Part shown: positions 10,111 through 29,135 of the stretch, piece by piece | How positions within the stretch are numbered: the stretch's first letter is position 1 | Layout: each line of letters begins with the position of its first letter | Origin: an archaeon | GTDB taxonomy: Archaea > Undinarchaeota > CAZHTU01 > JBDRCC01 | DNA length: 64,000 bases | Assembly: GCA_043822065.1 (NCBI GenBank) | Contig: JBDRCC010000006.1 | Span: forward strand, 16,578 to 80,577 | Direction: 5' to 3' | Position numbers and translations under genes: made by a program | The notes under the pieces: model-generated | What the model saw: only the letters and a program-made list of their open reading frames with translations | Databases searched by the model: none | What the model was told of the DNA's origin: nothing

Positions 10111-11904
10111 CTAATTTTTCAGCTGTTTCTGCGCAGGCAGGAACCCTTTTTTCTTGACACTTATAAGTGATTTTTTCCCAATTCCGCCGATTCCTATTCT
10201 TCCATTCCTGTCGGTCTGCCCTACCGGCACATTATCGACCGCAACCAAGGCATCACTGACTGGTTTCTTTGAAAGCCCGGAGACCGCAAGCCTCAGCCTG
10301 CCCTGAGCTGCATCATGCTCGGCGATGTCCACGACAAGGCTCCTCGAAGCAATAAAGTATATGCTCCCCCCAAGGAGCAGGAGCATTAAGAGGAGCAGCC
10401 CGGCATTGCCAAAGCCCATTCCCCCAAGTGTCACTAAACCGGTCGGGCCTGCAGGCGCGGCTATGTCTATTTCCACTTGGTAGCTTATGTACCCTGCCTT
10501 GCCTGCCCATATCATGTCTCCGTCGTGTATGTCCGGGATGAGCATCTTACCGTCAGCGCCGGTTTTGCCCACGCTGGCGCCGTTCTTTCTGACCTCTGCT
10601 GCGTCTACGGGGCTTCCAGCCTCGTCAACGACCATTATCTCGATTATTCCGCCGTCCTCAATCTCTTCGGTAAGGACGTTTATCTTGAGCTGGGCCTTTT
10701 CACCGGTTGCCGGAGCAGTTGTGGCTTCTCCGCCGGTACCCGTCCTAACTACGCAGACATTCTCGTAGCAGACCTGCCCGCTTAAGCACTCGTCGTCGCT
10801 GTAGCACTCAAGTATGCTCGAGCTTCCTGACCACGAGCTTCCGCCTCCGCCGCCTGGGCTTCCGCCGTCGTCTCCGCCGTCGTCTCCGCCAGAGCTCCTG
10901 ACGGTTAGCGTCCTCGCTGCAAAGTTGTCCGAGAGGTCGGTCTCCCCTGCGACGAAGTCAACAGTGGAGTTTAATGGGAAAGTACCTTCGGACCCAAAGT
11001 AGACACTTACCTGATAAGTTTGCGAGCTCCCAGGGGCAAGGTCTACGCTCTGGTTCCCAAGGTACCCCCCATTAACATTAAAGTGGATGTATGTGACTGC
11101 CTGGACCTGGCCCTGGTTCTCAACGGTCGCCGTTATTGTCGCGTTGGTCCCTGGCGGCACCGGGTCCGGCGTGTATGCCAGGGCGGTTATTGCCACATCC
11201 CTGACCAGCGGAGGCATAAGCAGCTCCTTCGTTATCTCCGCAAATACGTAATCCCCCTCTGCGTCGGACGCCACTACCCTGTAGGTGTGGAATCCTGGCG
11301 TCAGGCTTGTTATCGTGAAAGTCGGGTGGACGCTGTTGGCGCTGTAGAGCTGCGGGTAGATTCGCTCCAATCCCCCAGTCACCACAGTCTGCCCGTCGAC
11401 CTGGAGGGTCGCATTTACGTTGTTCGCAGTCCCGCTTCCGACGTTTGTGACGTGCGCCGCAAGAGTGAATGTCTGGTTTGCGTAAATTGTGCCCGGGTCG
11501 GTTATGTTTACCTCAAGTTCCGGCGCGGTAGGAGCATTAACTACGACCTCAGTCCTTGCCTGGCAGGCTCCGCCGTCATGGGTCACATTCACAGTCATAT
11601 TGTAAACCCCTGGCTGGACCGCAGTCACTGACCAGACCGAATTGTTCTGGTAGTACCAGTCCGCCTGAAGGAGGTTTCCGAGCCCCACTGGGTTGGTGTC
11701 TGCCGTAACAAATGCAACAGGAAGGTCAAGCATAGCCTGGACGTTGTTAATATCGCCGCCGAAAGTCCAGATTACGAGCGAGACTTGGTTCATGTCTCCA
11801 AGGTCTACCGGCGAATAATAGCTGATTTCTATGTCCTCCGGGTTGCAGGCGTATGCAAACCCTGCAGCGAGCACCAGTGCCAGCATCAGGTAGTTGAGCT
11901 TCAT
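10111..11904 (-). CDS. CARDB/Ig-like surface glycoprotein with Gly/Ser linker, Cys knot, TM helix and cytoplasmic Ig-like tail
   Basis: Signal peptide; DVAITAL...ENQG...ETDLSDN CARDB motif; GGDDGG linker; TM segment. Confidence 0.8.
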   Translation of the reverse strand: MKLNYLMLALVLAAGFAYACNPEDIEISYYSPVDLGDMNQVSLVIWTFGGDINNVQAMLDLPVAFVTADTNPVGLGNLLQADWYYQNNSVWSVTAVQPGVYNMTVNVTHDGGACQARTEVVVNAPTAPELEVNITDPGTIYANQTFTLAAHVTNVGSGTANNVNATLQVDGQTVVTGGLERIYPQLYSANSVHPTFTITSLTPGFHTYRVVASDAEGDYVFAEITKELLMPPLVRDVAITALAYTPDPVPPGTNATITATVENQGQVQAVTYIHFNVNGGYLGNQSVDLAPGSSQTYQVSVYFGSEGTFPLNSTVDFVAGETDLSDNFAARTLTVRSSGGDDGGDDGGSPGGGGGSSWSGSSSILECYSDDECLSGQVCYENVCVVRTGTGGEATTAPATGEKAQLKINVLTEEIEDGGIIEIMVVDEAGSPVDAAEVRKNGASVGKTGADGKMLIPDIHDGDMIWAGKAGYISYQVEIDIAAPAGPTGLVTLGGMGFGNAGLLLLMLLLLGGSIYFIASRSLVVDIAEHDAAQGRLRLAVSGLSKKPVSDALVAVDNVPVGQTDRNGRIGIGGIGKKSLISVKKKGFLPAQKQLKN

Positions 11905-14900
11905 GATACCGTCACCTGCCCGACATCAGTTACTTCCTGGTATATCGTGCCCCTGACGTTGAAAACGCCAGTCTGGCTGGTGGAGTTGACGTACCACACC
12001 AGGCTCGTGGACTTGTTCACGTCTATGAATGGTATTATTCTCCAGTCAACGTCGTTGTTGCCGAATACGAGCCCGTTGTCGAGAGTTAGGTTGACCGGGA
12101 TGTTGTACTGCGCCTTCTTCGCAGTGTTCCAGACGTTTACCACCGAGACAAACGCCGAGTTCTGCGGCCTCTGCGACGGGACAAGGACGTCTATCGCCAG
12201 GACCTCGTCATACGAGTAAACCCTCTTCGAGAAGGGGTACTGGTTGTCGACAGTGTCAGTTTCCCCGCTGACCGGGTCGACGGATACCACAAAGCTGTGG
12301 TTGTACTGCGTTGATGCCCAGCTAAATGGCACATTGGTGGTTGCGCCTACTGCAAGGTTTGGTATCGTGTAGCTGTCCTTCTGTATTCCATCGACAAACA
12401 GCCTGACGACGAGGCTGCTCTCAGCCCTCTCGCCCTCGTTCTTTATGGCTGCTGTGAAGTTCATGACATCCTTTTCGATTACAACGCTTGGGACATACGT
12501 GACATTTACGACCCTTACGTCTGGTATCGGCGTCACTGTTACATTTATCCTGACTACTTTGGAGTCCTCAAGCCCCACAGTGTCCCTGACGCTTATGTTG
12601 ACCATGTGTATGCCTGCGTCCGCATGGACCGGCACGACTGATATTATTCCGCTGTTCTGGTCTATCGTGAAAAGCGGGCTGTTCGAGTAGAACCTGAGCG
12701 TGTCAAGCGGCATGTCCGGGTCGGTCGCGTTCACGTCAAGGTAGAACTGCTGGTACTCCCATGCGTAGTAGTCGCTTGCAAGGGTAGCCAGCACCGGCGG
12801 GTCGTTTACATTTATGACCGTTGCAACCGACATGTCCGAGTCGGTGTAGGTGCCGTCATTTGCAGTGAATGTTATCGTCTCAACGCCGTAGAAGTTAGGT
12901 GCCGGCGTCAGGGTCGCCACATGGGTGAGCGGGTCTATCGCAACAGCTATCTGGGCGTTTCCGCTTGCAGTCCAGGTTATGCTGGGGAGCGGAGTGTCCG
13001 CGTCAACGATATAATTGTCAAGGTCAATGCTGTTGTTGAACGAGTCCTCCATTATCCAGACGTTCGGTATGTCGCCGACATCAGGCCTTCCGGCTGCCGG
13101 AGCAACCGTTACCCGCATATAAGCAGTTATAACTGTCGTGCCGTCAGTCGCGTTGACAGTGACGTACCTGATGCCAGTATTTCCTATGCCAGGCGTCCAG
13201 GTCATCTGCCCTGTCGCCGGGTTGAACGTTATTGTGGTGTCGTTTATCCAGTAGGTTACTGCCTGCCCGTCCGGGTCTGTCGCATGGACTGTGTAGTCAA
13301 GGCTTGAGTCCTCGGCAATCGTCTGGTTTGCCGGGTACGGGTCCCAGTACGGCGCCTCTTCAACGCCGATAACTGTCACGGTTACGGTATCCGAGTCCGT
13401 CAGCCCGCCCGCGTCAGCTGCTGTGAACGTTATCGTCTCGCTTCCGGACCAGTTTGGAGCCGCTGTGAAATTGACCGTCCTGTCTGCCAGTATGGACACC
13501 ACGACATTCGTGTTTCCAGAATAGGTCCAGTTTATGTTCGCGTCAGGCGTCATGTCGTCGGTGACATACGCATCGAGACTTATTGTATCATTATAGAGGT
13601 CCTCAACGAACCAGACGTCCGGTATGTCTGTAACAACCGGCGCGTCGTTTACCTCGGTCACATTTACAAATATCTGGGCCCAGACTGCCTGCCCAGTGCT
13701 GTCGGTCGCATTGAACTCAACATGCCACATGCCGTTGAACCCTGCCGGCGCAGTCCAGCTCACGCCTCCGAGCGGCCCGACTGTGAACGTGGTGTCATTA
13801 ACTCCATATGTTATCGCATCGCCATATTGAAGGTCTGCGTCCGATGCAAGGAGTAGCATCGAAAGGGTGCCCTCCTCAGCAATCGTTTGGTTCTGAGGGT
13901 ATACCAACCAGAACGGGGCATCGTTTATCTGCTTGACATGAATAGTCAGGCTTGTCGTGTTCGCCAGCCCGTCCCCATCCATCGCCGTGAACGTTATAGT
14001 CTCATTTCCAGCCCAGTCAGCATCTGCGGTCAGGTTCAGCTGCCTGTTCGAGTCAATCGTGGCGTGGACGTTGGTGCCCGTCCCAGTCCAGACTATGTTC
14101 GCATCAGGTGTCATGTCGTCTGCGACATACGCATCCATATTCAGCGTGTCATTGTAAGCGTCCTCGTCGAACCAGACGTCCGGCATCGGGAAAGTCTCCG
14201 GCCTGTCGTTTACCGGGGTGACATTCACCCAGAAGTAGCCCCAAACAACTTCGCCAGCCGAGTCTGTGGCGTTGACCTCAAAGTACTCCATCCCATTGAA
14301 GCCGCCAGCTGGCGTCCAGGCAATGTTTCCGCTTGAGTCAATAGTAGCTGTTCCGTTTATAGCGTAAGTTATGGCATCACCATATGGCAGGTCGGCGTCG
14401 CCAGCCTCAACCTGGAATGCTGCGGTCCCGCCCTCAGCTATCGTCTGGTTTGCCGGGTAGGTTACCCAGAACGGGGCGTCATTAACCTGAATCACGCTGA
14501 CCGTGAGCTGCGTCGTGTTCGCCAGCCCGTCCCCATCCATCGCCGTGAACGTTATAGTCTCATTTCCAGCCCAGTCAGCATCCGCTGTCAGGTTCAATAT
14601 GCGAGTAGCAGAATCAATAACTGCGTGCACATTTGTCCCCGTACCCGTCCACACAATATCTGCATCTGCAGTCATATCATCTGTAACATAATCATCCATC
14701 ACGAGCGTGTCATTGTAAGTGTCCTCGTCAAACCAGACGTCCGGCATCGGGAAAGTCTCCGGCGGGTCGTTTACCGGGGTGACGTTCACCCAGAAGTAAG
14801 CCCAGGCAACCTCGCCTGCGAGGTCTGTCACGTTAACCTCAAAGTACTCATACCCGTTGAAGCTCCCTGGCGCAGTCCACTGGATGGTGCCGTTGGCATC

Positions 14901-17390
14901 AATCGTCGCCGTCCCGTTTATGCCGTATGCCAGGACATCACCATAGGGCGTGTCCACATCGCCGCCAGCCACCTGGAAGCCAACCGTTCCCCCCTCTTCG
15001 ACAGTTTGGTTTGTGGGGTAGACGAGCCAGAACGGTGCGTCATTGACCTGAATAACATGCACCGTGAGCTGCGTCGTGTTAGTAAGCCCGCCCTCGTCAG
15101 CCGCAGTGAACGTTATAGTCTCATTTCCAGCCCAGTTTGCGTTTGCAGTCAGGTTAAGCTGCCTGTTTGAATCAATCGTGGCGTGGACGTTAGTCCCCGT
15201 ACCAGTCCAGACTATGCTCGCGTCCGGCGTCATGTCGTCCTGGACGTAGGCGTCCATATTCAAGGTGTCATTGTAAGCATCCTCATCGAACCAGACATCC
15301 GGCATCGGGAAAGTCTCCGGCGGGTCGTTTACCGGGGTGACGTTCACCCAGAAGTAAGCCCAGGCAACCTCGCCTGCGAGGTCTGTAACATTAACTTCAA
15401 AGTATTCAATCCCGTTGAATCCCGCTGACGGGGTCCAGGTCACGAGGCCGTTTGCGTCAACAGCCGCAGTGCCGTTTATCGCGTAGGATATTGCGTCCCC
15501 GTAAGCCAAATCCGGGTCAGACCCATACAACTGATAAATCAGCTGGGTCTCCTCCTGTGTCTCAGTGTTGTTCGGGTAGGCAAGCCAGAATGGGGCGTCA
15601 TTTACGTTCAGCACGCTGACATTCACGGCTTCCGAGTCAGTCAGCCCGCCCTCGTCTGTTGCAGTCAGTATTATACTCTCGTTCCCGGACCAGTTGCCTG
15701 CCGGCGTGAGTGTCAGTACGCGGGTAAGCGGGTCGACGGAAACCTGGACGTTTGCCCCGTTTCCGCTCCAGACTATGTCTGCGTCGGCGGATTCAAGGTC
15801 TGCGACGTAATCGTCAAGGCCAATCGTGTTGTTAAGCATGTCCTCGTCAATCCATATCGCAGGGAATGGGTCTACGACCGGCGGGTCGTTTACCGGGACA
15901 ATGGTCACGAGCGTGCCGTCCGAGCCAATTCCGCCCTTTCCGTCGTCGGCCTGGAAAGTTATGGTCTCTGCGCCCGTCCAGTCTGCAGGCGGAGTGAAAG
16001 TGACAATGTTGTCCACGTCAACCGCGACGTTTATGTTTACGTTCCCGCTCCAGGTCCATGTCGGGACGTCGCCGTCTGGGTCTACGTAGCAGTCGTCAAG
16101 GTTAATCGAGTTGTTGAACGAATCCTCATCGGCGAACACGTCAGGGACATCCACGACCGGGGCGTCATTTCCGCACAGGACCTCAACGCCCATCGCCCCA
16201 TAGTCGCTCAGCCCGCCCTCGTCTGTTGCAGTAAATATTATAGTCGCGTTTCCGCACCAGTCTGCGGCTGGCGTAAGCGTGAGCATGCCGTCAGCTGCAA
16301 CTGTGGCCGTGACGTTGGCTCCGTTGTTTGTCCAGACAATGTCTGCGTCAGCGGTCTCCTCGTCAGCAACATAATCATCCATGTCGACGCTTGTGTCCGG
16401 CGTGTCCTCTGCCAGAGTCATCGCGGGCAGCGGGTCTACGACCGGCAGGTCGTTTACCTCTATAACATACATATTAAAGCTTGAGTTCGCCTGTGCGCCC
16501 TTCGAGTCGACAATCCAGACTGTTGTCCAGTACGGGCTGCCCGGGAGGTCTGCATTAACCGGAGTGAAGCTGAACTGCCCCGTGGCAAGGCCTATGTCAA
16601 ATAGGGTAGAATCGTCATAATACTGGAGCGGGAGGTTGTTTTCAGGGTCGGTTGCACTTACTGTGTAGCTGAAAAGAACGTCCTCTGTTGAGTACAGGGT
16701 TGGGATTCCAGCGCCGCCATTCACAATTGGCGCCTTATTATAATAGACTAATACATCCTGCCAGTCGATAAGGTTCGTGCTGTCCTTTGCCCAAAACCGC
16801 ACCTGCGCAGGGCTTGAGGGGAAATCCCCATTTTGGGGCACATAATTTATCTCGCCAGTCACCAAATTGAGTTTGGATTTCATGAATGTGTTGTCGACAT
16901 TAAACGACAGTATGTCGCCGAGGATGCTATCCTCATCCGTCGCAGTCAGGAAGTAGGTAAAAACCTGCCCCACATTCACGTAAAAGTCAGAAATTGCGCC
17001 AAGTACTGGCGCCTCGTTCACGTTCGTTACCGTTATCTGGATTGGCTGGCTTACCGGCGGGTTGACGCCGTCATTGACTGTGATACTGACAGTAATCGGG
17101 CTTGCAAGGACCTCCGGGTCATCCCCGAAAAAGCTCACATAGAACCTAACGTCCTTCTTCCCATTGTCTGCGGCTTCCTTAGTTACGGTCACCCAAGGGT
17201 TATCCGCTGAAAAGCTGAGGATGTCCTTGTCGTCGTCATACGCCCAAAAAGTCGTGCTGTATGTATGCTCCTCGTTGGTCGTAATATCGTTAAGAACCGT
17301 GAAGTATGGTGCTGAGTTCGCAGCAAACGCAAAGCTCGAGCTCAACAGTAATGCTAGGAACAACCAACCAACCTTACCCCTGGAACCCAT
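11901..17390 (-). CDS. Giant secreted adhesin-like protein with tandem cadherin/Ig-like (VNDAP-type) repeats and C-terminal CARDB
   Basis: Many VND[AP]P repeats about 95 aa apart; Asp-rich Ca-binding motifs; abundant N-x-S/T sequons; overlaps the next gene by ATGA. Confidence 0.85.
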   Translation of the reverse strand: MGSRGKVGWLFLALLLSSSFAFAANSAPYFTVLNDITTNEEHTYSTTFWAYDDDKDILSFSADNPWVTVTKEAADNGKKDVRFYVSFFGDDPEVLASPITVSITVNDGVNPPVSQPIQITVTNVNEAPVLGAISDFYVNVGQVFTYFLTATDEDSILGDILSFNVDNTFMKSKLNLVTGEINYVPQNGDFPSSPAQVRFWAKDSTNLIDWQDVLVYYNKAPIVNGGAGIPTLYSTEDVLFSYTVSATDPENNLPLQYYDDSTLFDIGLATGQFSFTPVNADLPGSPYWTTVWIVDSKGAQANSSFNMYVIEVNDLPVVDPLPAMTLAEDTPDTSVDMDDYVADEETADADIVWTNNGANVTATVAADGMLTLTPAADWCGNATIIFTATDEGGLSDYGAMGVEVLCGNDAPVVDVPDVFADEDSFNNSINLDDCYVDPDGDVPTWTWSGNVNINVAVDVDNIVTFTPPADWTGAETITFQADDGKGGIGSDGTLVTIVPVNDPPVVDPFPAIWIDEDMLNNTIGLDDYVADLESADADIVWSGNGANVQVSVDPLTRVLTLTPAGNWSGNESIILTATDEGGLTDSEAVNVSVLNVNDAPFWLAYPNNTETQEETQLIYQLYGSDPDLAYGDAISYAINGTAAVDANGLVTWTPSAGFNGIEYFEVNVTDLAGEVAWAYFWVNVTPVNDPPETFPMPDVWFDEDAYNDTLNMDAYVQDDMTPDASIVWTGTGTNVHATIDSNRQLNLTANANWAGNETITFTAADEGGLTNTTQLTVHVIQVNDAPFWLVYPTNQTVEEGGTVGFQVAGGDVDTPYGDVLAYGINGTATIDANGTIQWTAPGSFNGYEYFEVNVTDLAGEVAWAYFWVNVTPVNDPPETFPMPDVWFDEDTYNDTLVMDDYVTDDMTADADIVWTGTGTNVHAVIDSATRILNLTADADWAGNETITFTAMDGDGLANTTQLTVSVIQVNDAPFWVTYPANQTIAEGGTAAFQVEAGDADLPYGDAITYAINGTATIDSSGNIAWTPAGGFNGMEYFEVNATDSAGEVVWGYFWVNVTPVNDRPETFPMPDVWFDEDAYNDTLNMDAYVADDMTPDANIVWTGTGTNVHATIDSNRQLNLTADADWAGNETITFTAMDGDGLANTTSLTIHVKQINDAPFWLVYPQNQTIAEEGTLSMLLLASDADLQYGDAITYGVNDTTFTVGPLGGVSWTAPAGFNGMWHVEFNATDSTGQAVWAQIFVNVTEVNDAPVVTDIPDVWFVEDLYNDTISLDAYVTDDMTPDANINWTYSGNTNVVVSILADRTVNFTAAPNWSGSETITFTAADAGGLTDSDTVTVTVIGVEEAPYWDPYPANQTIAEDSSLDYTVHATDPDGQAVTYWINDTTITFNPATGQMTWTPGIGNTGIRYVTVNATDGTTVITAYMRVTVAPAAGRPDVGDIPNVWIMEDSFNNSIDLDNYIVDADTPLPSITWTASGNAQIAVAIDPLTHVATLTPAPNFYGVETITFTANDGTYTDSDMSVATVINVNDPPVLATLASDYYAWEYQQFYLDVNATDPDMPLDTLRFYSNSPLFTIDQNSGIISVVPVHADAGIHMVNISVRDTVGLEDSKVVRINVTVTPIPDVRVVNVTYVPSVVIEKDVMNFTAAIKNEGERAESSLVVRLFVDGIQKDSYTIPNLAVGATTNVPFSWASTQYNHSFVVSVDPVSGETDTVDNQYPFSKRVYSYDEVLAIDVLVPSQRPQNSAFVSVVNVWNTAKKAQYNIPVNLTLDNGLVFGNNDVDWRIIPFIDVNKSTSLVWYVNSTSQTGVFNVRGTIYQEVTDVGQVTVS
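13900..15600 (-). repeat. Near-identical intragenic tandem duplications, about 560-bp period
   Basis: CGGCATCGGGAAAGTCTCCGG at 14181, 14742 and 15300 (spacings 561 and 558 bp). Confidence 0.9.
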
Positions 17391-20634: not shown

Positions 20635-22044
20635 TTATTCGTCCGCCGCCCACCTGCCTTTTTTCAGCACCTTGGCAGCCATCTTCGCGCCGTTCCTTTT
20701 CTCGTTATCAAGCTCCCGCGTAATCGTTCTGGGGTCGATGTACCCCCATGTCTTGAGCGCCTGCGCAAGCTCCTTGTGCGTCTTGGCATACTCCTTCGCA
20801 GGGATGCCTTTCACCGTAGCATCTATTGCCTGGCGCATTGACATCGCGCCCTTAACCGTCCCGCCCGGGTGCCCGTGGACGCCGGCGCCTGCCTGGATGT
20901 TCACATCCTTGCCATGGAGCCGTACCAGCGCGTCCACCCTCCCTGCGTCAAGCCCGCCGGAGGCAATGGCCAGCATTGGCTTTATGTGGCTTGCAAATTC
21001 CATTTTCAGCGAGCCGTACTGCAATTTCTCGCCGACTTTCATCTGGTCTGCAATGTCATGGTACCTCTTTATCACAAGCGGCGAGCCCTCCATCTTGCCT
21101 ACTCCCGTTCCGATGTGAAGCTGGTCTATGCCCAGCATCCTGTAGAACTTTTCGTACACCTGGAAGTTTATTCCGTACGAGCCCCTGTTCGGAGCAGCAT
21201 ACCCTGCTCTGTGCCCGTGGGTTGCGAAGCCATATTTCCGCGTCAGCTCAAGGGTGTCCTGCAGCGCGCTCATGCCCATCACGTAAACATCAAGCATCAC
21301 AATGATGTTCTTCTGGAGCCCCATCTCGTTCAGGTAGTCAATCCGCTCGGCCATCCTCGAGTACCTGTCGCTCACGTTGCATGAATAAAGGTGGTTCTGC
21401 CCCGTCTCCCCGCCCGCCTTTTCAATCGCCTTTACGACATTGTGGAGCCTATCCGTCCACCTGCAGAAGTCCTGGTCCACGAGGTTCTCGTCATCCTTGA
21501 CAAGGTCAAGCCCGCCGGCGAATGAATTGTAAGCGACGTTCGCCCACTCCTTCGCGGTAAGCCCGACTTTAGGCTTGACAATGGTTCCGACGTGCGGTCG
21601 CCGGCTCTTTGTGGTCCCTGCCAGCTTTCGTATGCCCTCCAATCCGGCATACGGGCCCTTGAACCACTTCTGGTACTTCTTCGGGAATGCAATGTCAAAG
21701 ACATACAGCTCTTCAAGCTCCTTCAGCCCGAAGAGGTTCCCAAGCACTGACGCCTGAAACTGGCTTACGTTCTTCGCGTCGAAGTGCTCGACAGGATATG
21801 CGACCCAGACAAACCCGCTGTTTTTCGTGACCTTGTCAATCCTGAAAATCCTAGCGCGGTAATGGTCCCAGACGTGCTGGTTCATGGTCGATAATTTCGT
21901 CCACGAGCCGACGCTGCTTTCCGCGGCAATCGCCTCCGCGGTCTTTTCCAGGGTCATCTGGCTCTTTGTCCAGATGAGGACTACGAAGTCGTCCTGTGTT
22001 GGTTTGTACTTTAAGTCGATATAACTGTATCCGCCGTAAGCCAT
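20635..22044 (-). CDS. rbcL: RuBisCO large subunit, form III-like
   Basis: AAESSVGSW, GNLFG, TIVKPKVG, LVKDDE, HGHRAG, HIGTGVGK, ASGG, HGHP. Confidence 0.9.
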   Translation of the reverse strand: MAYGGYSYIDLKYKPTQDDFVVLIWTKSQMTLEKTAEAIAAESSVGSWTKLSTMNQHVWDHYRARIFRIDKVTKNSGFVWVAYPVEHFDAKNVSQFQASVLGNLFGLKELEELYVFDIAFPKKYQKWFKGPYAGLEGIRKLAGTTKSRRPHVGTIVKPKVGLTAKEWANVAYNSFAGGLDLVKDDENLVDQDFCRWTDRLHNVVKAIEKAGGETGQNHLYSCNVSDRYSRMAERIDYLNEMGLQKNIIVMLDVYVMGMSALQDTLELTRKYGFATHGHRAGYAAPNRGSYGINFQVYEKFYRMLGIDQLHIGTGVGKMEGSPLVIKRYHDIADQMKVGEKLQYGSLKMEFASHIKPMLAIASGGLDAGRVDALVRLHGKDVNIQAGAGVHGHPGGTVKGAMSMRQAIDATVKGIPAKEYAKTHKELAQALKTWGYIDPRTITRELDNEKRNGAKMAAKVLKKGRWAADE

Positions 22045-22099: not shown

Positions 22100-23137
22100 C
22101 TATACTGCTAAGTCTTTGTAGGTCCTGACGACTTCCTTCAGCTTCGGCGAGTCAAAAACATCCCGTCCAAGGAACGCGTTGGCGGTCGAGGTGTACATCT
22201 GCCCTATTATCCTCTTCAGCTCAGGGTGCAGCTTCGGCGGCTTGGACCTGCAAAGCGCTTTCCAGTCCGTGACCTTTTTTTCCTCGGCAGCGTTCTTTGC
22301 CTTCTCGACGTCCGAATACCACGCAGTCTTCCTGTAGAATTTCCTTGCCACTTCCTTGCTAACTGGAAGCCCGTTGTATGTAAACCTGCACTCGTCCAGG
22401 GTGCCAAGGATGTCGACGAGCATAAGCTCCCTCATTGGCCCGTAAGCAAGTTCTATCTTTCCATCCTCATTTACGAGGTCTGCCGTCGCCCCAATTTCAG
22501 TTATAAGACCGTTTGCCTTCCGCAGGACGCCCTTGAGTTCGCCAAGCTCGGCATCACTCATGCAAGAAATCTCCTGCGCCTCCTCCCAGGTCATGTACCG
22601 ATCCCTTACTTCAAGCTTTGTGCTCACGTCAAATATAGGATTGTCAAGCACCGCGCCAGGCTTTGGATAGTGGTCCAGCCCAAGCGCCTGGTAGGTCGTG
22701 TCACCCCGTTCAAGCCTCTTGAAAACGCTAGAGCCCTCCGGCAGGCGGTTCCTGTAAATTACCTCAAGCGGAATAAGGAAGTTTTCCAGTTTTGGAGTAT
22801 AAGCTGAATAATCATACCTGCCGCCCTTGAACGGCGGCCTGATGACGTTAACGATTGACACTTCCATCACGTTCGACGGCTCTTCGAGCTCGTCCAGCCT
22901 GTGCGGCTTGCCGTCCTTGCCGACCAAGCCCTTGTAATGCGTTTTAATCCCGCGCCGCTCAATCTCCTCAAAACAGAAGGACCCCATTATGCACAGCGCG
23001 GCGCCCTTGTTCGGGATGTGGTCCGGCATCTCGCCCCAGTCGAACACAGAGTACCTGTCCGAGAAAACAAACCTGCCTACGCCCATCTTCCCCTTAGTGG
23101 GCTTTTTCAGAATTTGAAGGTCCTTTACGCTTCCCAT
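22100..23137 (-). CDS. purC: SAICAR synthetase (long archaeal type)
   Basis: MGSVKDL, FSDRYSVFDWG, IPLEVIYRN, STKLE, DGKIE, GTLDECRF. Confidence 0.93.
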   Translation of the reverse strand: MGSVKDLQILKKPTKGKMGVGRFVFSDRYSVFDWGEMPDHIPNKGAALCIMGSFCFEEIERRGIKTHYKGLVGKDGKPHRLDELEEPSNVMEVSIVNVIRPPFKGGRYDYSAYTPKLENFLIPLEVIYRNRLPEGSSVFKRLERGDTTYQALGLDHYPKPGAVLDNPIFDVSTKLEVRDRYMTWEEAQEISCMSDAELGELKGVLRKANGLITEIGATADLVNEDGKIELAYGPMRELMLVDILGTLDECRFTYNGLPVSKEVARKFYRKTAWYSDVEKAKNAAEEKKVTDWKALCRSKPPKLHPELKRIIGQMYTSTANAFLGRDVFDSPKLKEVVRTYKDLAV

Positions 23138-23177
23138 CGGCTTTCCTAAGAATCAGGGATATAAATAGATTTACTCA

Positions 23178-23227
23178 AACAAAAAGCGAGAGGCGGCAGT
23201 TCCCCGAATAAATGGGGCTTACTACAC
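23178..23227 (+). repeat. rnpB-3'-end-derived repeat R1
   Basis: CGAGAGGCGGCAGTTCCCCGAATAAATGGGGCTTACTACAC; core 23195-23224. Confidence 0.9.
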
Positions 23228-23250
23228 AAAAATACTTCTTCTGGATAAAA

Positions 23251-23682
23251 CTAGCCGGTGTTCTTTTTCAATTCGTTTTTGATTTTCGGCAGAAATTCTG
23301 TTAGGAACTCCAGTGCATCCTGGCATTCAGCAATGCTCACCGCTTCGGCGCTGTAAATGGCGTTGTTTCTCAACTTTCTTAATCTGTCAAAGGTTTCAGC
23401 ATCCTGGTTGGGGATCTCTGTGAACTCCTTTAGGAATGCCACGAGAACTGTGTGGGAATACGGCTTGTACCCTACGTTAGACATCAACGCCTGAACGGCC
23501 TCACGCATGCACTCATAGATGTCTTCGAAAATGAAGTCAGCGTTTTCTTCTGAAATCTCTTGAGTCTTTATATATTTCAAACGATTACTCGCTTTCGTAA
23601 TAAGGGAGTTTGCTTCTGCAGGGTCCGCTGTTTTTCTTACTACTTCCTGTTTGTCCAGATAGTACTCAAATTCCTCTATCAT
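23251..23682 (-). CDS. HEPN-domain protein (toxin of MNT-HEPN pair)
   Basis: IYECMREAVQAL...GYKPYSH...FDRLRKLRNNAIY. Confidence 0.8.
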   Translation of the reverse strand: MIEEFEYYLDKQEVVRKTADPAEANSLITKASNRLKYIKTQEISEENADFIFEDIYECMREAVQALMSNVGYKPYSHTVLVAFLKEFTEIPNQDAETFDRLRKLRNNAIYSAEAVSIAECQDALEFLTEFLPKIKNELKKNTG

Positions 23683-24209
23683 CTTAGCGCTCTTAGATAT
23701 CCGCTCAAAACTACTCCATTCGCCAGGTCATTTAGGAACTCTGGGTTTGACTTGCTGAGGTCCACGTCATGTATGTTTATTTTCCGTCCTAGAATCCCCT
23801 CAAACTTCTTTGCACTAAACTCAATGCTCCTTTTTGTCACAATTGCCAAATCAACATCACTCTTTATAGTGTCCTCGCCGCGCGAGTAGGAGCCAAAAAG
23901 CACAACTGCCTCTGGCTCATTGTACTTTCTTACAATTTCTGAGACAAGTCCAGACCTTTGAAGCATATATAAATTGAAAAACCTCTTGAGGGGGAAAAAC
24001 TCGCCACCGTCAAAATCTGGATAATAGTTCAGTACTGCTTTTCCCCTCTCAGACTTCAGAATTTTCTCAGATTCGAGCTTCTTTAGAATGCTGGAAACAG
24101 CAGGAAGTGACAAGCCAGTGAGCCGGCTTAATTCACGAATATGAAACTTCCCAGTGGGATTATTAAAGAACGGTTTCAATAGCTTAAACCGGTTATCTTT
24201 TTCTAACAT
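23679..24209 (-). CDS. wHTH-minimal nucleotidyltransferase (MNT antitoxin)
   Basis: FHIRELSRLTGLS HTH; LFGSYSRGED...SDVDL; ATGA overlap with the HEPN gene. Confidence 0.88.
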   Translation of the reverse strand: MLEKDNRFKLLKPFFNNPTGKFHIRELSRLTGLSLPAVSSILKKLESEKILKSERGKAVLNYYPDFDGGEFFPLKRFFNLYMLQRSGLVSEIVRKYNEPEAVVLFGSYSRGEDTIKSDVDLAIVTKRSIEFSAKKFEGILGRKINIHDVDLSKSNPEFLNDLANGVVLSGYLRALR

Positions 24210-24211
24210 CT

Positions 24212-24249
24212 GTTATAAAATAGTAACAAGTGTTATATAAACCTAACGG
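24212..24249 (-). promoter_or_regulatory. TATA promoter overlapped by two TGTTA-N8-TAAC inverted repeats (putative autoregulatory operators)
   Basis: TGTTATAAAATAGTAACA and TGTTATATAAACCTAACG; TTTATATA on the minus strand. Confidence 0.6.
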
Positions 24250-24263
24250 TTGAAGTAACACGA

Positions 24264-24323
24264 GCTCCCGTTGCATGCGAGAGTAAACGGGGGCAGTTCC
24301 CAAATAAATGGGGCTTACTATAC
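24264..24323 (+). repeat. rnpB-3'-end-derived repeat R2
   Basis: GCTCCCGTTGCATGCGAGAGTAAACGGGGGCAGTTCCCAAATAAATGGGGCTTACTATAC. Confidence 0.9.
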
Positions 24324-24382
24324 ACTCGCAGAGGGCGATTAACTAACAGTCCAAATCCATTCCTTGTTGTTTTTATTTCACC

Positions 24383-24928
24383 TCAATCGAAGTAGTTTTC
24401 AGGTTTTAGTCTTTCTGCGGCAGCTGTTTGTTCCTTTTTCATTCTTCTGATGTTTTTTCTGCCAATCTCTTTTATACCATCTTTCATTAACTCTTCATAG
24501 CCCTCCGTGTCAAGTTCGAGGTAGCAAAGTCTGCCATCATAGGCAACAATTCTATATCCTAACTTAAGGTGCAGAAAAGTAGAAGCGTCGAAGTCCTCGG
24601 TCTCTCTTTTGACTTTGGATACGGCAGCTATGACTCTGCGAACTCCATATTTCCCATATAGGCATTTTAGAACTTGGAATTCAAAGGACTGACCACAGCG
24701 TCTCCCCTTGAATTTTATGTGCAGCCCATGGATAAATGCAATGTTCCCGTCTAGGGTACACATTATCTCTCCGACTTGATTTTCTTCGTTGTGCTTGCCC
24801 TTCTCATAAAACAAAAACTGAATAGTTTTTGTAAGGCCCTTTCGACAATAAGGATAGTCTACTGGGAAGGGGCGCTGGTACATAATCAAAAGCATTCTTT
24901 CCTTGGAGTTTATTTTTATCTCTTCCAT
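24383..24928 (-). CDS. Hypothetical protein, possibly GNAT-like fold
   Basis: AFIHGLHIKFKGRRCG...LGYRIV resembles GNAT motifs A/B; AT-rich. Confidence 0.55.
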   Translation of the reverse strand: MEEIKINSKERMLLIMYQRPFPVDYPYCRKGLTKTIQFLFYEKGKHNEENQVGEIMCTLDGNIAFIHGLHIKFKGRRCGQSFEFQVLKCLYGKYGVRRVIAAVSKVKRETEDFDASTFLHLKLGYRIVAYDGRLCYLELDTEGYEELMKDGIKEIGRKNIRRMKKEQTAAAERLKPENYFD

Positions 24929-25087
24929 CTTATATCAATGCCCTTCCTGCTCCACATCGCATCATTTTTGAGCATGACTTTTCTGATGCTTTCTCCTTAT
25001 AAAAATGTAAGCGCCGGGCGCGGGAGCATAACCAGCAGTTCAAACCACATAATTGATACGAAACAGTAAGCCGGTAAAATGAGCTTA

Positions 25088-25429
25088 CTAACCTGCTAAC
25101 AGCTTTACTACCTCTAGCACAATTATTACTGGTAGCAAATAGAAAACAATACTGCCCAAAACAATATGCCCAATCAACGACTTAATCAGGAGTATTCCAG
25201 CAATCAGCCCTACTGCTACTGCTGGCAGTCCGATTGGCGACATTCCGTGGTGGACAACATGGATTACTTGTGCAAGTATTAGCAGCATGCCCAACGCCCA
25301 CAGCGCTGCTATGTTCGGAGTCGCACTTGAAATGTGGACCTTGAAAATCAGGCCAGCAAGTATTACCAAAAGAGTTGACGGAAGCACACATACTGGGTCT
25401 ATATGGCCCCTATTTGACATTTTAAACAT
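25088..25429 (-). CDS. Small His-containing 4-TM membrane protein
   Basis: Hydrophobic segments with GH and HVVHHG; divergent from the Fur gene. Confidence 0.65.
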   Translation of the reverse strand: MFKMSNRGHIDPVCVLPSTLLVILAGLIFKVHISSATPNIAALWALGMLLILAQVIHVVHHGMSPIGLPAVAVGLIAGILLIKSLIGHIVLGSIVFYLLPVIIVLEVVKLLAG

Positions 25430-25460
25430 AAGTTCAATTTGTCAGATATATTTAAATATG

Positions 25461-25483
25461 TTATTGATTTCCATTATCAATAA
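25461..25483. promoter_or_regulatory. Fur/Zur-box-like operator
   Basis: Perfect 8-7-8 inverted repeat TTATTGAT-TTCCATT-ATCAATAA between a TATA (TTTAAATA) and the fur start. Confidence 0.7.
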
Positions 25484-25487
25484 GCAA

Positions 25488-25856
25488 ATGCCAAGAAAAA
25501 CTAGGCAGAAAGAGCTCCTCCTGTCAGAGGTGGAAAAACTTGATGTCATCTTCTCTGCAGATGACCTGTTCAAGCTGGCTAGGGAAAAGGACACAAAGAT
25601 TGGGATTGCAACGGTATACCGCTTTCTTAGAAACCTAATGGCAAAGCAGCAGCTCCATTCCTACCTATGCAACCGGCGCATGGTATACTCCAAGGATATG
25701 AACAGCCACTGCCACTTTATATGCCAAAAATGCGGAAAAGTTGCTCACTTCAAAGTTGAGGATATCGGATTTATAAAAGAGAAAATAGACGGCCAGCTCT
25801 GCCATTTCCAGATAGATGTGCACGGGCTCTGCAGAGGCTGTCTAAAAGCCGAGTAG
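25488..25856 (+). CDS. Fur/Zur family metalloregulator
   Basis: IGIATVYRFL, HCHFICQKCG, HGLCRGC. ATG at 25488. Confidence 0.9.
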   Translation: MPRKTRQKELLLSEVEKLDVIFSADDLFKLAREKDTKIGIATVYRFLRNLMAKQQLHSYLCNRRMVYSKDMNSHCHFICQKCGKVAHFKVEDIGFIKEKIDGQLCHFQIDVHGLCRGCLKAE

Positions 25857-25870
25857 ATATTTTTTGCATG

Positions 25871-25940
25871 GCAAGCCCCTTAGCATGTGAAAGTAAAATC
25901 GAGAGGGGGCAGTCCCCCGACTAAATGGGGCTTACTATAC
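25871..25940 (+). repeat. rnpB-3'-end-derived repeat R3 (longest copy)
   Basis: GCAAGCCCCTTAGCATGTGAAAGTAAAATCGAGAGGGGGCAGTCCCCCGACTAAATGGGGCTTACTATAC. Confidence 0.92.
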
Positions 25941-25961
25941 AAATCCTTAACGACATGAAGA

Positions 25962-26507
25962 TTATTCTCCAGATTCGGTTAGAAGAGCATCAATTTTATC
26001 TACGAAATCATTTGCGTCCTTTACCAATAAATCTGCTGCCTCTCTTTCTATCCCCACTTCAGCCGAGTACTGCGCAGTTTCCCTTTCCCTCCTTGCTCGC
26101 CGGAGCTTCATGACATACTCTTCTTCAAGTTTTTTCGCCTCTCTCAGCGTCTCAAGGTGCTTCTTCTCCAGCAGCCCTTTTCTGACATAATAGCACTCGA
26201 GGGCCATACTCGTAGCGGCATGATTCTTGCTCCAGAAACCCAATTTACCTATCGCCGCTAAAGCGGCATGGTACATGGCGTAGTAGGAACAGACGACAAC
26301 CCAGTCGTTAGCTTTGAAATCGTGAAGCTTGAGAATATCCTGCGCATTCTTAGACTTGTCCAGCAATCTTAGAACCTTTGCAACCAACAGATTATGTCTT
26401 GCTTTTTCTATGTGGTTTGGAACTAACCTCGCAATGTGAAATCCTTTTCCGAACGTACCTTCTTCTTCAAACTTCCTAAGTTTTTTCTTAAGCTCTTCCG
26501 CTTTCAT
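25962..26507 (-). CDS. HEPN-domain protein
   Basis: DWVVVCSYYAMYHAALA, SKNH, RRERETAQY. Confidence 0.87.
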   Translation of the reverse strand: MKAEELKKKLRKFEEEGTFGKGFHIARLVPNHIEKARHNLLVAKVLRLLDKSKNAQDILKLHDFKANDWVVVCSYYAMYHAALAAIGKLGFWSKNHAATSMALECYYVRKGLLEKKHLETLREAKKLEEEYVMKLRRARRERETAQYSAEVGIEREAADLLVKDANDFVDKIDALLTESGE

Positions 26508-27127
26508 AACTTCACCTCGAACACAATATCCCAAAATCTCTTATGGCCAAAAATAATTATGCCATCTGTCAACGCTTCGGTACCGACAGTGGATGTTTCA
26601 GAGGCAAGCATTTTTTTCATACTTTCCAAATCTGCGACAACAGTCGAAATACTCTTGCCATAGCGCATCTCTATAGTACTTGCAATTCTATCAACCACCC
26701 CCTTATCCTTTAACGAGGACGATAGAGTGAGCAAATCAATATCACTTCTTTCGGTTCCCCCCCCTCTCGCATATGAGCCAAACAACACAACAGACTGTAG
26801 TCGTTCGCCAAGTTCTTCTTTAACGCCTGATAAAAATTCGTCAACTATTTTCCCTGCACTTGACTTTCTCCCAAAGAGCTCCTCCCGCTCTTCTTCCGTG
26901 AGGAGGGACAGATAAGTCTTAGTTTTTTCAGTGTCCTTCAAGCCAATTTCATACGCCTTTCCAACTCTATTCTTCCCAAGGACCCCTTCCGCGACCAAAG
27001 AGTTAACATGCCGGTGCGTCGGCTCATATGATAATCCAATTCTTTCCGAAAGTTCGCGGATAGTGTAAGTCGCACCAATGTCCCTTCTGTAAGCTTTCAA
27101 TACTCTAAAGATGTTTTCTAACTTCAT
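26504..27127 (-). CDS. wHTH-minimal nucleotidyltransferase
   Basis: TIRELSERIGLSY HTH; LFGSYARG...SDIDL. ATG at 27127. Confidence 0.88.
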   Translation of the reverse strand: MKLENIFRVLKAYRRDIGATYTIRELSERIGLSYEPTHRHVNSLVAEGVLGKNRVGKAYEIGLKDTEKTKTYLSLLTEEEREELFGRKSSAGKIVDEFLSGVKEELGERLQSVVLFGSYARGGGTERSDIDLLTLSSSLKDKGVVDRIASTIEMRYGKSISTVVADLESMKKMLASETSTVGTEALTDGIIIFGHKRFWDIVFEVKL

Positions 27128-27164
27128 ATTGGATTTTCCAATAATGTTATTGGATTTCCAAATA
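27127..27164. promoter_or_regulatory. Tandem operator palindromes upstream of the MNT gene
   Basis: TATTGGA-TTT-TCCAATA plus a second near-copy TATTGGATTTCCAAATA overlapping the TATA. Confidence 0.65.
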
Positions 27165-27182
27165 TAAACTTTTCGCTCCATG

Positions 27183-27219
27183 AAATCAAGGGGCAGTTCC
27201 CCGAACAAATGGGGCTTAC
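27183..27219 (+). repeat. rnpB-3'-end-derived repeat R4
   Basis: AAATCAAGGGGCAGTTCCCCGAACAAATGGGGCTTAC. Confidence 0.9.
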
Positions 27220-27246
27220 CTAACAGTCAAAGTCCATCTGCCGGAT

Positions 27247-27695
27247 TTACTCTATCCTGTCAATTAGGTCTGAGATGTCCTGTGCGTGTTTCTTCTTCCC
27301 TGCGATAAGGGTATGGAACGTGTCCCTTTGCAGCTTGCTGGAAGCAAGGCGTGCGCCCTTTTCATACATCTCTGCCGCCTTTACCTCTCCTATCAATCCT
27401 TCAGTCAGTTTCGCGACAAGTTTTGAGGTGGCAGGGGTGGCGCGTTTCACCTTTTTGCCAAAGAACTCACGGGATAATAGTTCCAGTACCTTGACATGCT
27501 GCTCACTCTCCGCAATAATCTTTTCAACGATAGCTCGTGCACTCTTTTTGTTTTCTGCGGGGATGTTCGCCCCCCCCCCAGTTCGGTTAACAGTTTTTTG
27601 TAGAAATCTATGGACGATAATTCCCCCGTTATAGCGACTTTGTTGATTAGTGTGATTAATTCTTTGTCCTGAATTCTCTTTTTGTAGTCCATCAT
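27247..27695 (-). pseudogene. Ferritin-like four-helix protein, frameshifted at a G10 tract
   Basis: GELSSIDFY (one frame) joins ESEQH...GEVKAAEMYE...KKKH (another frame) across the C10 run at 27570-27579. Confidence 0.65.
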
Positions 27696-27806
27696 CTTTA
27701 GCCCCCCCTTTTTTTTGGGCATATCCCCTTAAGAAAAACAAGTATTTAACACATACGTCTAAACAAACAAAGCCCTAAAATTAAGTAAAGATGCGCCGAG
27801 GGGGCG

Positions 27807-28586
27807 TCATCCTTTTTCACGCAAGGCTTGATTTAACCAGTCAGAGGCATACTCCGCTATTTCTTGCCAGCCCGGTTCCCCAATGACCCAGTGGGCATGG
27901 TTCGCGAATTCCTTGTAAGTTGAAACAGCCTTATATTTATCTGCAACTTTCCGAACAACTGAAGCAGGAGTGATCCTATCCTCGGCTCCGGCAACAACCA
28001 GAACAGGACAAGTAACCTTTGATTCATCAACGTTTGCCGCCCCCTTGGAATCAAGAAGCCAGAATCCGATTTCGTATGCTGCCCGCCCTGACTCGTAAAC
28101 AAATTTGTCAAAAGCCTCCTTTTGCTCATCGGCCGTGAGTAAATGCATCATCGAATACGCCGCATCATCAAAACCTTGCCGCATTGGCTTTCTCCAAAAG
28201 CCCCATTTTGTGAATACGCCCCAAAAACTTTTTATCACCGATGGCGTTAAGGCTATAATCCCCCGTGGTGATGCGGGAGTTAACAAAACAAGGGCTTTAG
28301 CCAATCCCCGGCTCCCAAGGATTTGTGCGAGAAGCCCGCCCATTGAGTGTCCCATCAGGATAGGGGTCGCGTCAAGCTCTCTAATTTTGTTCTCAAGGTC
28401 TTCAGCATAATCCAATATGCTGGTTGTTCCCAATAGGGGATTGGGGGTTTCACCCGGGCCCATATCATGAAAGCGCAGAGTGGGGTTAATACAATGATAA
28501 CCATTCTCCTCGAAAAATTTCTTGTAGTTCTCCCAACACCATCCGCCACCCCACATACCATGAATCATTATTATTGTTTCAGTCAT
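27807..28586 (-). CDS. Alpha/beta hydrolase
   Basis: IHGMWGG, GHSMGG nucleophile elbow, ED, HAHW; GGAGG RBS upstream. Confidence 0.9.
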   Translation of the reverse strand: MTETIIMIHGMWGGGWCWENYKKFFEENGYHCINPTLRFHDMGPGETPNPLLGTTSILDYAEDLENKIRELDATPILMGHSMGGLLAQILGSRGLAKALVLLTPASPRGIIALTPSVIKSFWGVFTKWGFWRKPMRQGFDDAAYSMMHLLTADEQKEAFDKFVYESGRAAYEIGFWLLDSKGAANVDESKVTCPVLVVAGAEDRITPASVVRKVADKYKAVSTYKEFANHAHWVIGEPGWQEIAEYASDWLNQALREKG

Positions 28587-28726
28587 GATTTGCCTCCGTT
28601 CGTTCAGCAATTTTGCATAATGCCCTATGCAGATATTTTTATATGCAATTGTTTATATAAAATATATTTGGTCACTACTGAACCTTTTCCTACGGTAAGC
28701 CCCACCTATTGTGCGAAAGTAAAATC

Positions 28727-29032
28727 GAGAGGAGGTAGTAAGCCCCATTCTGTTCAGGCCGCGGAAAACTTCACGCAAGGCCCTCTACGGCATTAGACTG
28801 AGCGTCTTAGACTTGCACCCGCCGGGGCCATGGCCGTTTCATTCCCATCCGCCGCCTCAGGTTTTCCATCATCACAAGGCGGAAAGGATATCGTTTCTGA
28901 TCCTGGCCCTGCCAGTCTCCCGGCAGCGCTTGCGCGCCAGTTTCGGCAGGATAGATTCCAGCCGAGGTGTGGGGACTTTCCTCGCCCCTTCGCGTTTGAA
29001 TGCTTAGGGACGGCGGCCGTTCTCCCCCTCTC
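28727..29032 (-). ncRNA. rnpB: RNase P RNA
   Basis: Minus strand has GAGGAAAGTCCCC (CR-I), CAGAAAC, TGAAAC, GGTGCAAG and AACAGAATGGGGCTTAC (CR-V). P1 is GAGAGGGGGAG/CTACCTCCTCTC. BRE-TATA (CGAAAGG-TTTTTAAA) lies upstream. Confidence 0.95.
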
Positions 29033-29135
29033 ACTATAGATAGGGCTCCCTGCTTTTAAAAACCTTTCGCCAAGCCCCCTGGGCTCAGCCCCATGACAGT
29101 TAGCTTTATAAAAATTCGTAGCATAGTCACATGGC

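Follow-up and report, generated by a model that had tools for sequence, protein, structure and literature searches.

In archaea, tandem integration of mobile elements, loss of the integrase, and the use of tRNA genes as targets are among the phenomena described in a review of tyrosine recombinases, in which dyad symmetry with an overlap of about 7 bp is given as the rule for the sites of these enzymes (PMC8371274). According to a survey, the majority of archaeal integrons are clusters of attC sites lacking integron-integrases (CALINs), that is, sites without an integrase, and no annotated class is more frequent in the archaeal cassettes than toxin-antitoxin (TA) genes (10.5%) (PMC9668308). Integrative mobile elements exploiting Xer (IMEX), in the account given in PMC5357621, use attachment sites (attP) whose similarity to the target is confined to one arm and the central region. 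Here, we describe an array of repeats and small gene cassettes located between purC and the gene for RNase P RNA (rnpB) in an archaeon of the phylum Undinarchaeota, within a stretch of 64,000 nucleotides (contig JBDRCC010000006.1, positions 16,578 to 80,577; hereafter, the window). The repeats contain an inverted piece of the rnpB 3' end and, clearly in two of the four main copies, another piece of it in the orientation of the gene, and the interpretation that we favor, with modest confidence, is that they are att-type scars of small cassettes that were serially integrated at the 3' end of this gene.

The assembly comprises 1.03 Mb in 22 contigs and is 82% complete, so that the absence of a gene from it is not a proof that the organism lacks the gene. 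In the collection that we searched, the phylum is represented by 17 genomes, this one included.

Pieces of rnpB in two orientations

The rnpB gene itself (28727–29032, minus strand) is intact and full-length: it matches the archaeal RNase P RNA family (RF00373) with 131.1 bits over model positions 1–288 of 288, and both helix P1 and conserved region V (CR-V) are aligned. Because the Rfam alignment places CUGAACAGAAUGGGGCUUACUACCUCCUCUC of the window on the conserved 3' end of the RNase P family, AAUGGGGCUUAC, which falls on the conserved ACAGAA..GGcUUAc segment, can be identified as CR-V with the 3' strand of helix P4. It is this segment, at 28736–28760, that is copied into the repeats; the final nine bases of the gene (28727–28735) are the 3' strand of P1 in the same alignment. 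Among the exact 13-mers of rnpB, only those at CR-V recur more than once. A small palindrome and a pair of AAGCCCC/AGCCCCAT motifs are also located between the rnpB promoter region and the adjacent Kef-like gene (29071–29097), possibly by chance given the 13 occurrences of AAGCCCC in the window.

With at most 1 mismatch allowed, the window contains 6 occurrences of the motif ATGGGGCTTAC, a count for which the chance expectation is 0.95 and which none of 100 shuffles attains. Four of the occurrences are on the plus strand (23212, 24308, 25925, and 27209), and two are on the minus strand, one inside rnpB (28738) and the other, with 1 mismatch, at 28695, in an extra P4-strand motif (hereafter, the box; 28694–28705, minus strand) that lies 33 nt beyond the rnpB 3' end in the orientation of the gene. 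The repeat set comprises four same-strand copies, at 23.2, 24.3, 25.9, and 27.2 kb, and two decayed copies. The four copies, all on the plus strand, are denoted R1 to R4 (or Ra to Rd). R1 (23182–23225; nhmmer E 2.9e-14) is the outermost junction and adjoins the purC promoter; R2 (24262–24320; E 6.8e-13) contains, in addition, a G/C stem in its upstream part and an rnpB trailer copy that has decayed; R3 (25862–25945; E 2e-14), the third plus-strand copy and the one at which a first-pass annotation of this DNA was directed (25871–25940), is an imperfect palindrome of 84 nt; R4 (27182–27221; E 2.6e-12) is the copy closest to rnpB. An nhmmer profile made from the four copies finds those four alone in the 1.03-Mb genome (E 2e-14 to 2.6e-12), the next match being rnpB, at E 0.32. 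The plus strand also contains Rb' (24339–24360), a partial extra right arm with the bases that follow it, which resembles 27216–27237 (78% over 32 nt), and Rx (25064–25097), a decayed fifth copy inside cassette 2 that makes a better small palindrome than any other member of the set (7 of 9 arm positions; fold z -1.6/-1.8).

Each repeat was aligned locally to 28680–28780 on both strands, with 300 shuffles per alignment. All four hold 14–23 nt of the CR-V/P4 segment inverted relative to the gene, and in no case does any shuffle reach the score: the match covers 23 of 24 columns in R1 (23203–23225), 14 of 14 in both R2 (24307–24320) and R3 (25924–25937), and 20 of 21 in R4 (27200–27219). The matches in the orientation of the gene are of graded quality. 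In R3, 52 nt (25862–25913) are homologous to the rnpB 3' end, the trailer, and the box (0 of 300 shuffles), and the 18-mer GAAAGTAAAATCGAGAGG is present, exactly, at 25889 and at 28715 and nowhere else. The 19-nt match in R1 (23182–23200) is moderate (1 of 300), and that in R2, 12 nt long, is weak (10 of 300); R4 has none in the scored alignment (155 of 300), and a gapped remnant of the P1 strand can be discerned there by eye. In two of the four repeats, R3 and R1, the inverted copy thus directly adjoins a clear copy of the rnpB 3' end and trailer in the orientation of the gene.

The first-pass annotation had portrayed the repeat as a two-orientation chimera, with a right half from CR-V/P4 in the opposite orientation and a left half from the rnpB 3' flank in the same orientation, and had pointed to the additional box at 28695. 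The right half is borne out in all four copies, and the box is where it was placed. The left half is confirmed for R3 and, at moderate strength, for R1, is weak in R2, and does not extend to R4, so that the chimera is evident in R3 and R1 and fades in R2 and R4. The arrangement CCCC-8 nt-GGGG that had been noted recurs in three of the four copies and breaks down in R2, which has CCC. In addition, the sequence of the rnpB 5' end recurs unchanged in R3 as GAGAGGGGG. The complement of this copy would consequently serve as a P1 3' strand with perfect pairing; the end that rnpB has today forms one G-U pair. As judged from this pairing, the R3 copy may match a former 3' end of rnpB.

The best-conserved part of the four repeats is a block of 31 nt, with 24 of 31 columns invariant compared with 4 of 38 upstream and 3 of 10 downstream. 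It is located at 23193–23223 in R1, 24290–24319 in R2, where it is one C shorter than in the other copies, 25906–25936 in R3, and 27190–27220 in R4, where it reads GGGGCAGTTCCCCGAACAAATGGGGCTTACC, and can be drawn as a left arm, an A-rich spacer of 6–8 nt, and a right arm, that is, as a quasi-dyad.

The conservation in the repeats is that of sequence; the conserved hairpins that had been proposed for them are not supported. R3 alone folds better than its own shuffles (single-strand fold z, plus/minus strand, -1.88/-2.54); the corresponding values are 0.08/0.31 for R1, -0.78/-0.91 for R2, and -0.44/0.38 for R4. RNAalifold on the four copies predicts 9 plus-strand and 8 minus-strand pairs, none of which shows a compensatory change, although a covariation test on four sequences is uninformative either way. 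The upstream stem, which was said to be kept despite sequence change, is found in R2 and R3, where it is formed by C4/G5 tracts originating from the P4 and P1 copies, and is missing in R1 and R4.

These data bear on the possibility that the repeats specify a functional RNA, either a miniature P4 helix on the plus strand (AGU(U)CCCC/GGGGCU) or a read-through RNA with 14–15 nt antisense to the RNase P catalytic core, along the lines of the P1/P4 mimic or antisense RNA that was one of the two options of the first-pass annotation. A P4-like helix with a bulge can be drawn on all four plus strands, the cassettes are transcribed on the strand that would bear the antisense segment, and R3 (25881–25947, plus strand) has a weak match to RNase_MRP that spans the whole model (16.5 bits, E 0.11). 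However, the gathering score of that model is 50, R1, R2, and R4 have no RNase P-clan match at E ≤ 10, no compensatory pairs are observed, the fold energies of R1 and R4 are no better than those of shuffles, and nothing similar is found at 12 other rnpB loci. Calculated duplex energies of read-through transcripts with rnpB mainly reflected G/C tracts and were given no weight. The resemblance to P4 and to RNase_MRP follows from the fact that the repeats copy both strands of helices P1 and P4, and we consider a role as RNA highly improbable, the least probable of the explanations weighed here.

A low-GC island of unrelated cassettes

The GC content is 0.41–0.46 over 23100–28700 and 0.52–0.57 in both flanks, with shifts at rnpB and at purC (SAICAR synthetase; 22100–23137, minus strand), the native-GC left border of the island. 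The cassettes are 1.0–1.5 kb long and mostly contain one or two genes. Cassette 1 (23226–24261, minus strand) encodes a HEPN protein (23251–23682) and a nucleotidyltransferase/winged helix-turn-helix (wHTH) protein (23679–24209). Cassette 2 (24321–25861), which Rx splits into 2a and 2b, has open reading frames (ORFs) within 24383–25856, namely, two on the minus strand, of 181 and 113 aa, both without an assigned family, and a Fur-family regulator on the plus strand. Cassette 3 (25946–27181, minus strand) again combines a HEPN protein (25962–26534) with a nucleotidyltransferase/wHTH protein (26504–27133), the latter with no close relative in genome_contigs, and cassette 4 (27222–28693, minus strand; ORFs within 27247–28610) contains a 164-aa ORF without a clear family and an alpha/beta hydrolase (27807–28610). 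Two HEPN and nucleotidyltransferase/wHTH pairs, a TA-type combination, are accordingly present within one small island.

The cassettes are unrelated to each other: the nucleotidyltransferases of cassettes 1 and 3 are 25% identical, and there is no significant alignment between the two HEPN proteins or between the two unknown ORFs. Given that the contents differ in this way while the block is invariant in 24 of its 31 columns, segmental duplication did not carry the repeats, and an origin of the array by this route was rejected. Another route without a mobile element would be a local rearrangement, in which a fold-back duplication of the rnpB tail was later copied together with neighboring genes by illegitimate recombination. 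Each repeat can indeed be written as the rnpB tail placed head-to-head with itself around the 8-nt CR-V loop, R3 and Rx being the most palindromic, but this scenario leaves unexplained the foreign, low-GC composition, the lack of relationship among the cassettes, and the sharp conservation of the 31-nt block, and appears very improbable.

The organization of the array is also reminiscent of an integron, with the repeats as attC-type hairpins of single-stranded DNA (ssDNA), the rnpB end as an attI-like entry, and the array as a whole as a CALIN. The cassettes are short and carry mostly one or two genes, the stop codon of the last ORF in cassettes 1, 3, and 4 is 24–25 nt ahead of the repeat, two of the four or five cassettes are TA-type pairs, and R3 is an 84-nt imperfect palindrome with bulges and a z of -2.54. 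However, only one of the four repeats folds clearly better than shuffles. The attC sites end in inverse core and core motifs, RYYYAAC ... GTTRRRY, and these fit, by eye, R4 alone among the four copies (ACCTAAC/GTTAGGT). An Rfam scan of 22900–28800 at E ≤ 10 gave no attC match, although Rfam may not include an attC family. The sole tyrosine recombinase of the genome, the single protein with a PF00589 domain, is encoded on another contig and fails the integron-integrase model (TIGR02249; 194.3 bits, below the cut-off of 265) but passes the XerA model (NF040815; 258.9 bits, cut-off 220). An integron-like platform therefore seems unlikely.

An arm variant private to cassette 4, with ACC in place of ACT, is present at both of its ends, one copy inverted relative to the other: the right arm of R4 terminates in ACC, as does the box at 28694, and the two make up an 11-bp perfect inverted repeat that spans the cassette (24 nt, 75% complementary). 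Such ends could belong to a transposon-like element, in which case cassettes with terminal inverted P4-strand motifs would have been inserted in the rnpB tail, with duplication of about 30 bp of the target, in the manner of casposons. Same-orientation copies of the rnpB tail flank cassette 4 on both sides, and decayed inward-facing arms are present also at the ends of cassettes 1 and 2b. Casposons duplicate 14–15 bp of the target, about half of the length that would be required here; moreover, terminal repeats that copy the target are not a known feature of transposons, cassette 3 lacks a proximal arm, and neither Cas1 nor a transposase of the families tested was found in the 82%-complete assembly. 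We regard this alternative as quite unlikely. An IS200/IS605-type reading, to which the TTAC that precedes every cassette could point, was rejected: there is no TnpA, and the whole unit of 45–85 nt, rather than the tetranucleotide alone, is repeated.

In the first gene of cassette 4, there are a C10 run (27570–27579) and a C7/T8 run (27702–27716), and the minus-strand ORFs 27247–27741 and 27447–27722 overlap in different frames, which suggests a homopolymer frameshift, caused either by real slippage or by an assembly error. To the left of the island, the window contains a 1829-aa ORF (11901–17390, minus strand) and a gene for the RuBisCO large chain (20635–22044, minus strand), purC being located between the latter and R1.

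Proposed recombination at the rnpB 3' end

On the strand of the gene, the body of rnpB is followed by the CR-V loop and P4 strand, the P1 strand and trailer, the second P4-strand motif, and cassette 4; then come a flipped P4-strand motif, a flipped CR-V loop, a degenerate P4 strand, a decayed P1 strand and trailer, cassette 3, and so on, and the array ends with a P1-like strand and a T-run ahead of the purC promoter. In this direction, each scar begins with CR-V and the P4 3' strand (rnpB positions about -32 to -10), copied almost exactly but flipped, and continues directly with a worn rnpB end in the same orientation (degenerate P4 strand, P1 3' strand, and T-rich trailer). We infer that the array originated by site-specific recombination, by an enzyme that acted in trans or has been lost, and that the crossover occurred in or beside the P1-strand/trailer segment because this is the only place that leaves rnpB functional.

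Under the scar interpretation, a circular cassette carrying its own copy of the rnpB end would recombine with rnpB and thereby re-make the gene. The attachment site of the cassette would be a palindrome composed of a flipped motif, the loop, a degenerate motif, the P1 strand and trailer, and the motif again. The gene would retain its own P4 strand and gain a new tail from the cassette, and the old tail would be displaced and left fused to the flipped arm of the cassette, such that the same-orientation part of the scar would represent an old 3' end. The cassette, in turn, would have contributed the flipped CR-V copy as one arm, which together with the degenerate P4 strand would form the 31-bp quasi-dyad, of the shape usual for the core site of a tyrosine recombinase. 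Repetition of these events, cassette behind cassette, would produce the array. R3 contains the complete predicted junction, in the form of its 84-nt palindrome, and the presence of the same ACC arm variant at both ends of cassette 4 is expected if both derive from one palindromic attP. The interpretation is further favored by the restriction of the repeats to this locus, at a frequency far above chance, by the low-GC island bordered by purC and rnpB, by the conservation of the block among cassettes with unrelated contents, by the full-length rnpB, by the 24–25 nt between the last stop codon and the repeat in cassettes 1, 3, and 4, and by the occurrence of other partial RNA-gene copies in the same genome. 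A crossover inside the dyad, aligned to rnpB by the matching loop, would invert DNA and sever P1, so that this orientation cannot be productive, which would account for the flipped copy lying harmlessly on the cassette side.

The first-pass annotation had held that simple displacement does not explain the inversion and, as its other option, had suggested inverted recombinase arms around a short spacer. The former statement is valid for the right half, which needs further explanation, but not for the left half, which is a copy of the displaced-end type in the orientation of the gene. The latter is the best fit to the anatomy of the block and agrees with the heterogeneous, low-GC cassettes; it falls short in that the dyad is weak, no matching recombinase is found, and only R3 is stable as an ssDNA hairpin.

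Several observations weigh against serial site-specific integration. The trailer half, in which we place the crossover, is far less conserved than the dyad (4 of 38 versus 24 of 31 invariant columns); this would better fit a crossover in the dyad, yet such a crossover with rnpB destroys P4 or P1. The degenerate P4 strands of all four repeats have one common derived form and hence are not independent decays of genuine rnpB ends. The ungapped dyad symmetry of the block is only 6 of 10 to 7 of 11, and R1 and R4, with fold z values near those of shuffles, lack a stable hairpin. No integrase is encoded in the array, and no recombinase family is represented among the 14 ORFs scanned; neither did searches for Resolvase, Y1 transposase, Cas1 (PF01867), IS110, TnpB, and DDE_Tnp_1 give any match in the 82%-complete assembly. 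The repeats of gene ends at other stable-RNA genes of this genome lack a flipped part: a portion of the tRNA-Tyr 3' end is repeated directly at C7:22985 (2 mismatches in 22) and at C7:24130 (5 in 22), in the region C7:22335-24151, and 18 nt of the tRNA-Arg(UCG) end recur exactly about 70 nt beyond that gene (C1:28567-28730), all as simple direct copies. Finally, the collections searched yielded neither an empty site nor a polymorphic array nor any homologous repeat, which leaves the mobility of the cassettes putative.

The search for homologous repeats covered several collections. Exact-pattern scans with the repeat core returned no loci in genome_contigs, metagenome_contigs, or viral_contigs; the left-arm pattern returned 2 loci in bacterial metagenome-assembled genomes in genome_contigs, about the number estimated for chance, and none in viral_contigs. 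In blastn searches, R3 had no match among phages and plasmids, and, among the 17 genomes of the phylum, nothing outside this genome was found below E 0.08. The best non-self match (E 0.08; L109 1495–1520, G003:C2) falls in a frame that encodes an AYYAMF-type helix typical of HEPN; one frame of the right arm of the repeat gives NGAYY, and we take this chance-level likeness to be a coincidence. In each of 58 loci elsewhere that contain the same CR-V motif, there is one copy within 2 kb on either side. With up to 2 mismatches, no extra copy was detected within 1.5 kb on either side of 13 rnpB loci, those of 12 other genomes and the window's own (L026), which at this range reaches none of the four repeats. 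Extended to 9.5 kb, the rnpB loci of 11 relatives contain no extra copy save one 2-mismatch match 6.8 kb away, in L101. In the relatives' loci that were fetched, the neighbors of rnpB include neither purC nor the Kef-like gene. Relatives of the Kef-like neighbor are encoded in 8 metagenome loci, and Rfam detected no rnpB in the seven that were scanned (the 1.2-kb L033 was left out). Because synteny is not kept, there is no empty site for comparison. The array appears to be a lineage-specific insertion footprint rather than a feature of rnpB loci.

With XerA as the only recombinase found in the genome, the host enzyme itself might be exploited, as by IMEX or dif modules, the 31-bp block serving as a pseudo-dif with 11-6-11 geometry. 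In line with this suggestion, the pairs predicted by RNAalifold define two arms, each of about 11 nt, with 6 nt of spacer between them, and XerA of Pyrococcus is described as binding unrelated stem-loop att sites weakly (PMC8371274). A scan of the genome for 11-6-11 dyads yields, as the best site, C11:11775-11802, with 10 of 11 dyad positions and arms of the GCGCATAA type; of the 16 other genomes of the phylum, 3 contain near-copies (≤2 mismatches) of this site, and controls gave 0 hits. This is a likely dif site of the single XerA. By eye, it has no similarity to the 31-nt block in either arms or spacer, its dyad is well above the 6 of 10 to 7 of 11 of the block, and the array is located at rnpB rather than at dif. 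These discrepancies make exploitation of XerA through a pseudo-dif improbable.

Implications and relationships to known systems

If the scar interpretation is correct, the stable-RNA genes at which mobile DNA lands in archaea include rnpB as well as tRNA and tmRNA genes, and defense-type and accessory genes reach this genome, about 1 Mb in size and nearly devoid of recombinases, in single small modules. The words 'rnpB' and 'RNase P' do not occur in the text of the review of archaeal tyrosine recombinases PMC8371274, and no report of rnpB as an integration site was among the matches listed in a full-text literature search, although one could still be in print. The two-orientation scar would also be a clue to the shape of the recombinase site, with the gene's own P4 strand and its flipped copy making a dyad. 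For annotation, there is a caution: short rnpB-like matches near rnpB can be recombination scars rather than RNA genes. A further-reaching, doubtful proposal is that the array represents a cassette-capture platform of DPANN archaea, in which the rnpB end is the entry site, the P4-derived quasi-palindrome is the cassette site, and the recombinase is encoded outside the array, possibly as the host XerA or else by an extrachromosomal element or the host cell. Such a platform would be a functional analog of integrons built on a stable-RNA gene.

Casposons at the 3' ends of archaeal tRNA genes are inserted behind a stable-RNA gene, have inverted ends and flanking copies of the target, and form tandem arrays. 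The rnpB array differs from them in the absence of Cas1, the tiny inserts, a target copy about twice as long, and ends that copy the target. The tRNA-Tyr-derived scars of the same genome are closer in another respect, the gain of single modules behind a stable-RNA gene with no integrase nearby; unlike the rnpB repeats, they simply duplicate the T arm and acceptor strand in direct orientation and have no flipped half.

The array shares with CALINs, including the archaeal ones as described in PMC9668308, an organization into short, unrelated cassettes that are often of the TA type, with an imperfect palindromic repeat behind each, and repeats that resemble each other within the genome more than anything elsewhere. 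It is set apart from them by the core motif, which is recognizable by eye in one of the four copies, by the single copy that folds well, by the derivation of the repeats from the neighboring RNA gene, and by the lack of a detected IntI. With IMEX and dif modules, to the extent that these are covered in PMC5357621, it shares the lack of an element-borne recombinase, tandem arrays, and a site that has one arm and part of the center in common with its chromosomal counterpart, this counterpart being, however, rnpB instead of dif, and the block being unlike the dif candidate of the genome.

The tandem integrative elements at the 3' ends of tRNA and tmRNA genes, such as the archaeal pT26-2, pTN3, SSV, and thaumarchaeal elements, differ from the array described here in their target, in that the inserts at rnpB are only 1.0–1.5 kb long and carry no integrase, and in the flipped gene segment that is present at each rnpB junction and absent from ordinary att repeats. 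As these elements are portrayed in PMC8371274, the rnpB array shares with them foreign DNA behind a stable-RNA gene that is left intact, serial inserts bounded by partial copies of the gene's 3' end (at rnpB, clear in R3 and R1, weak in R2, and not scored in R4), the possible loss of the integrase, and a dyad-like site with a short A-rich spacer.

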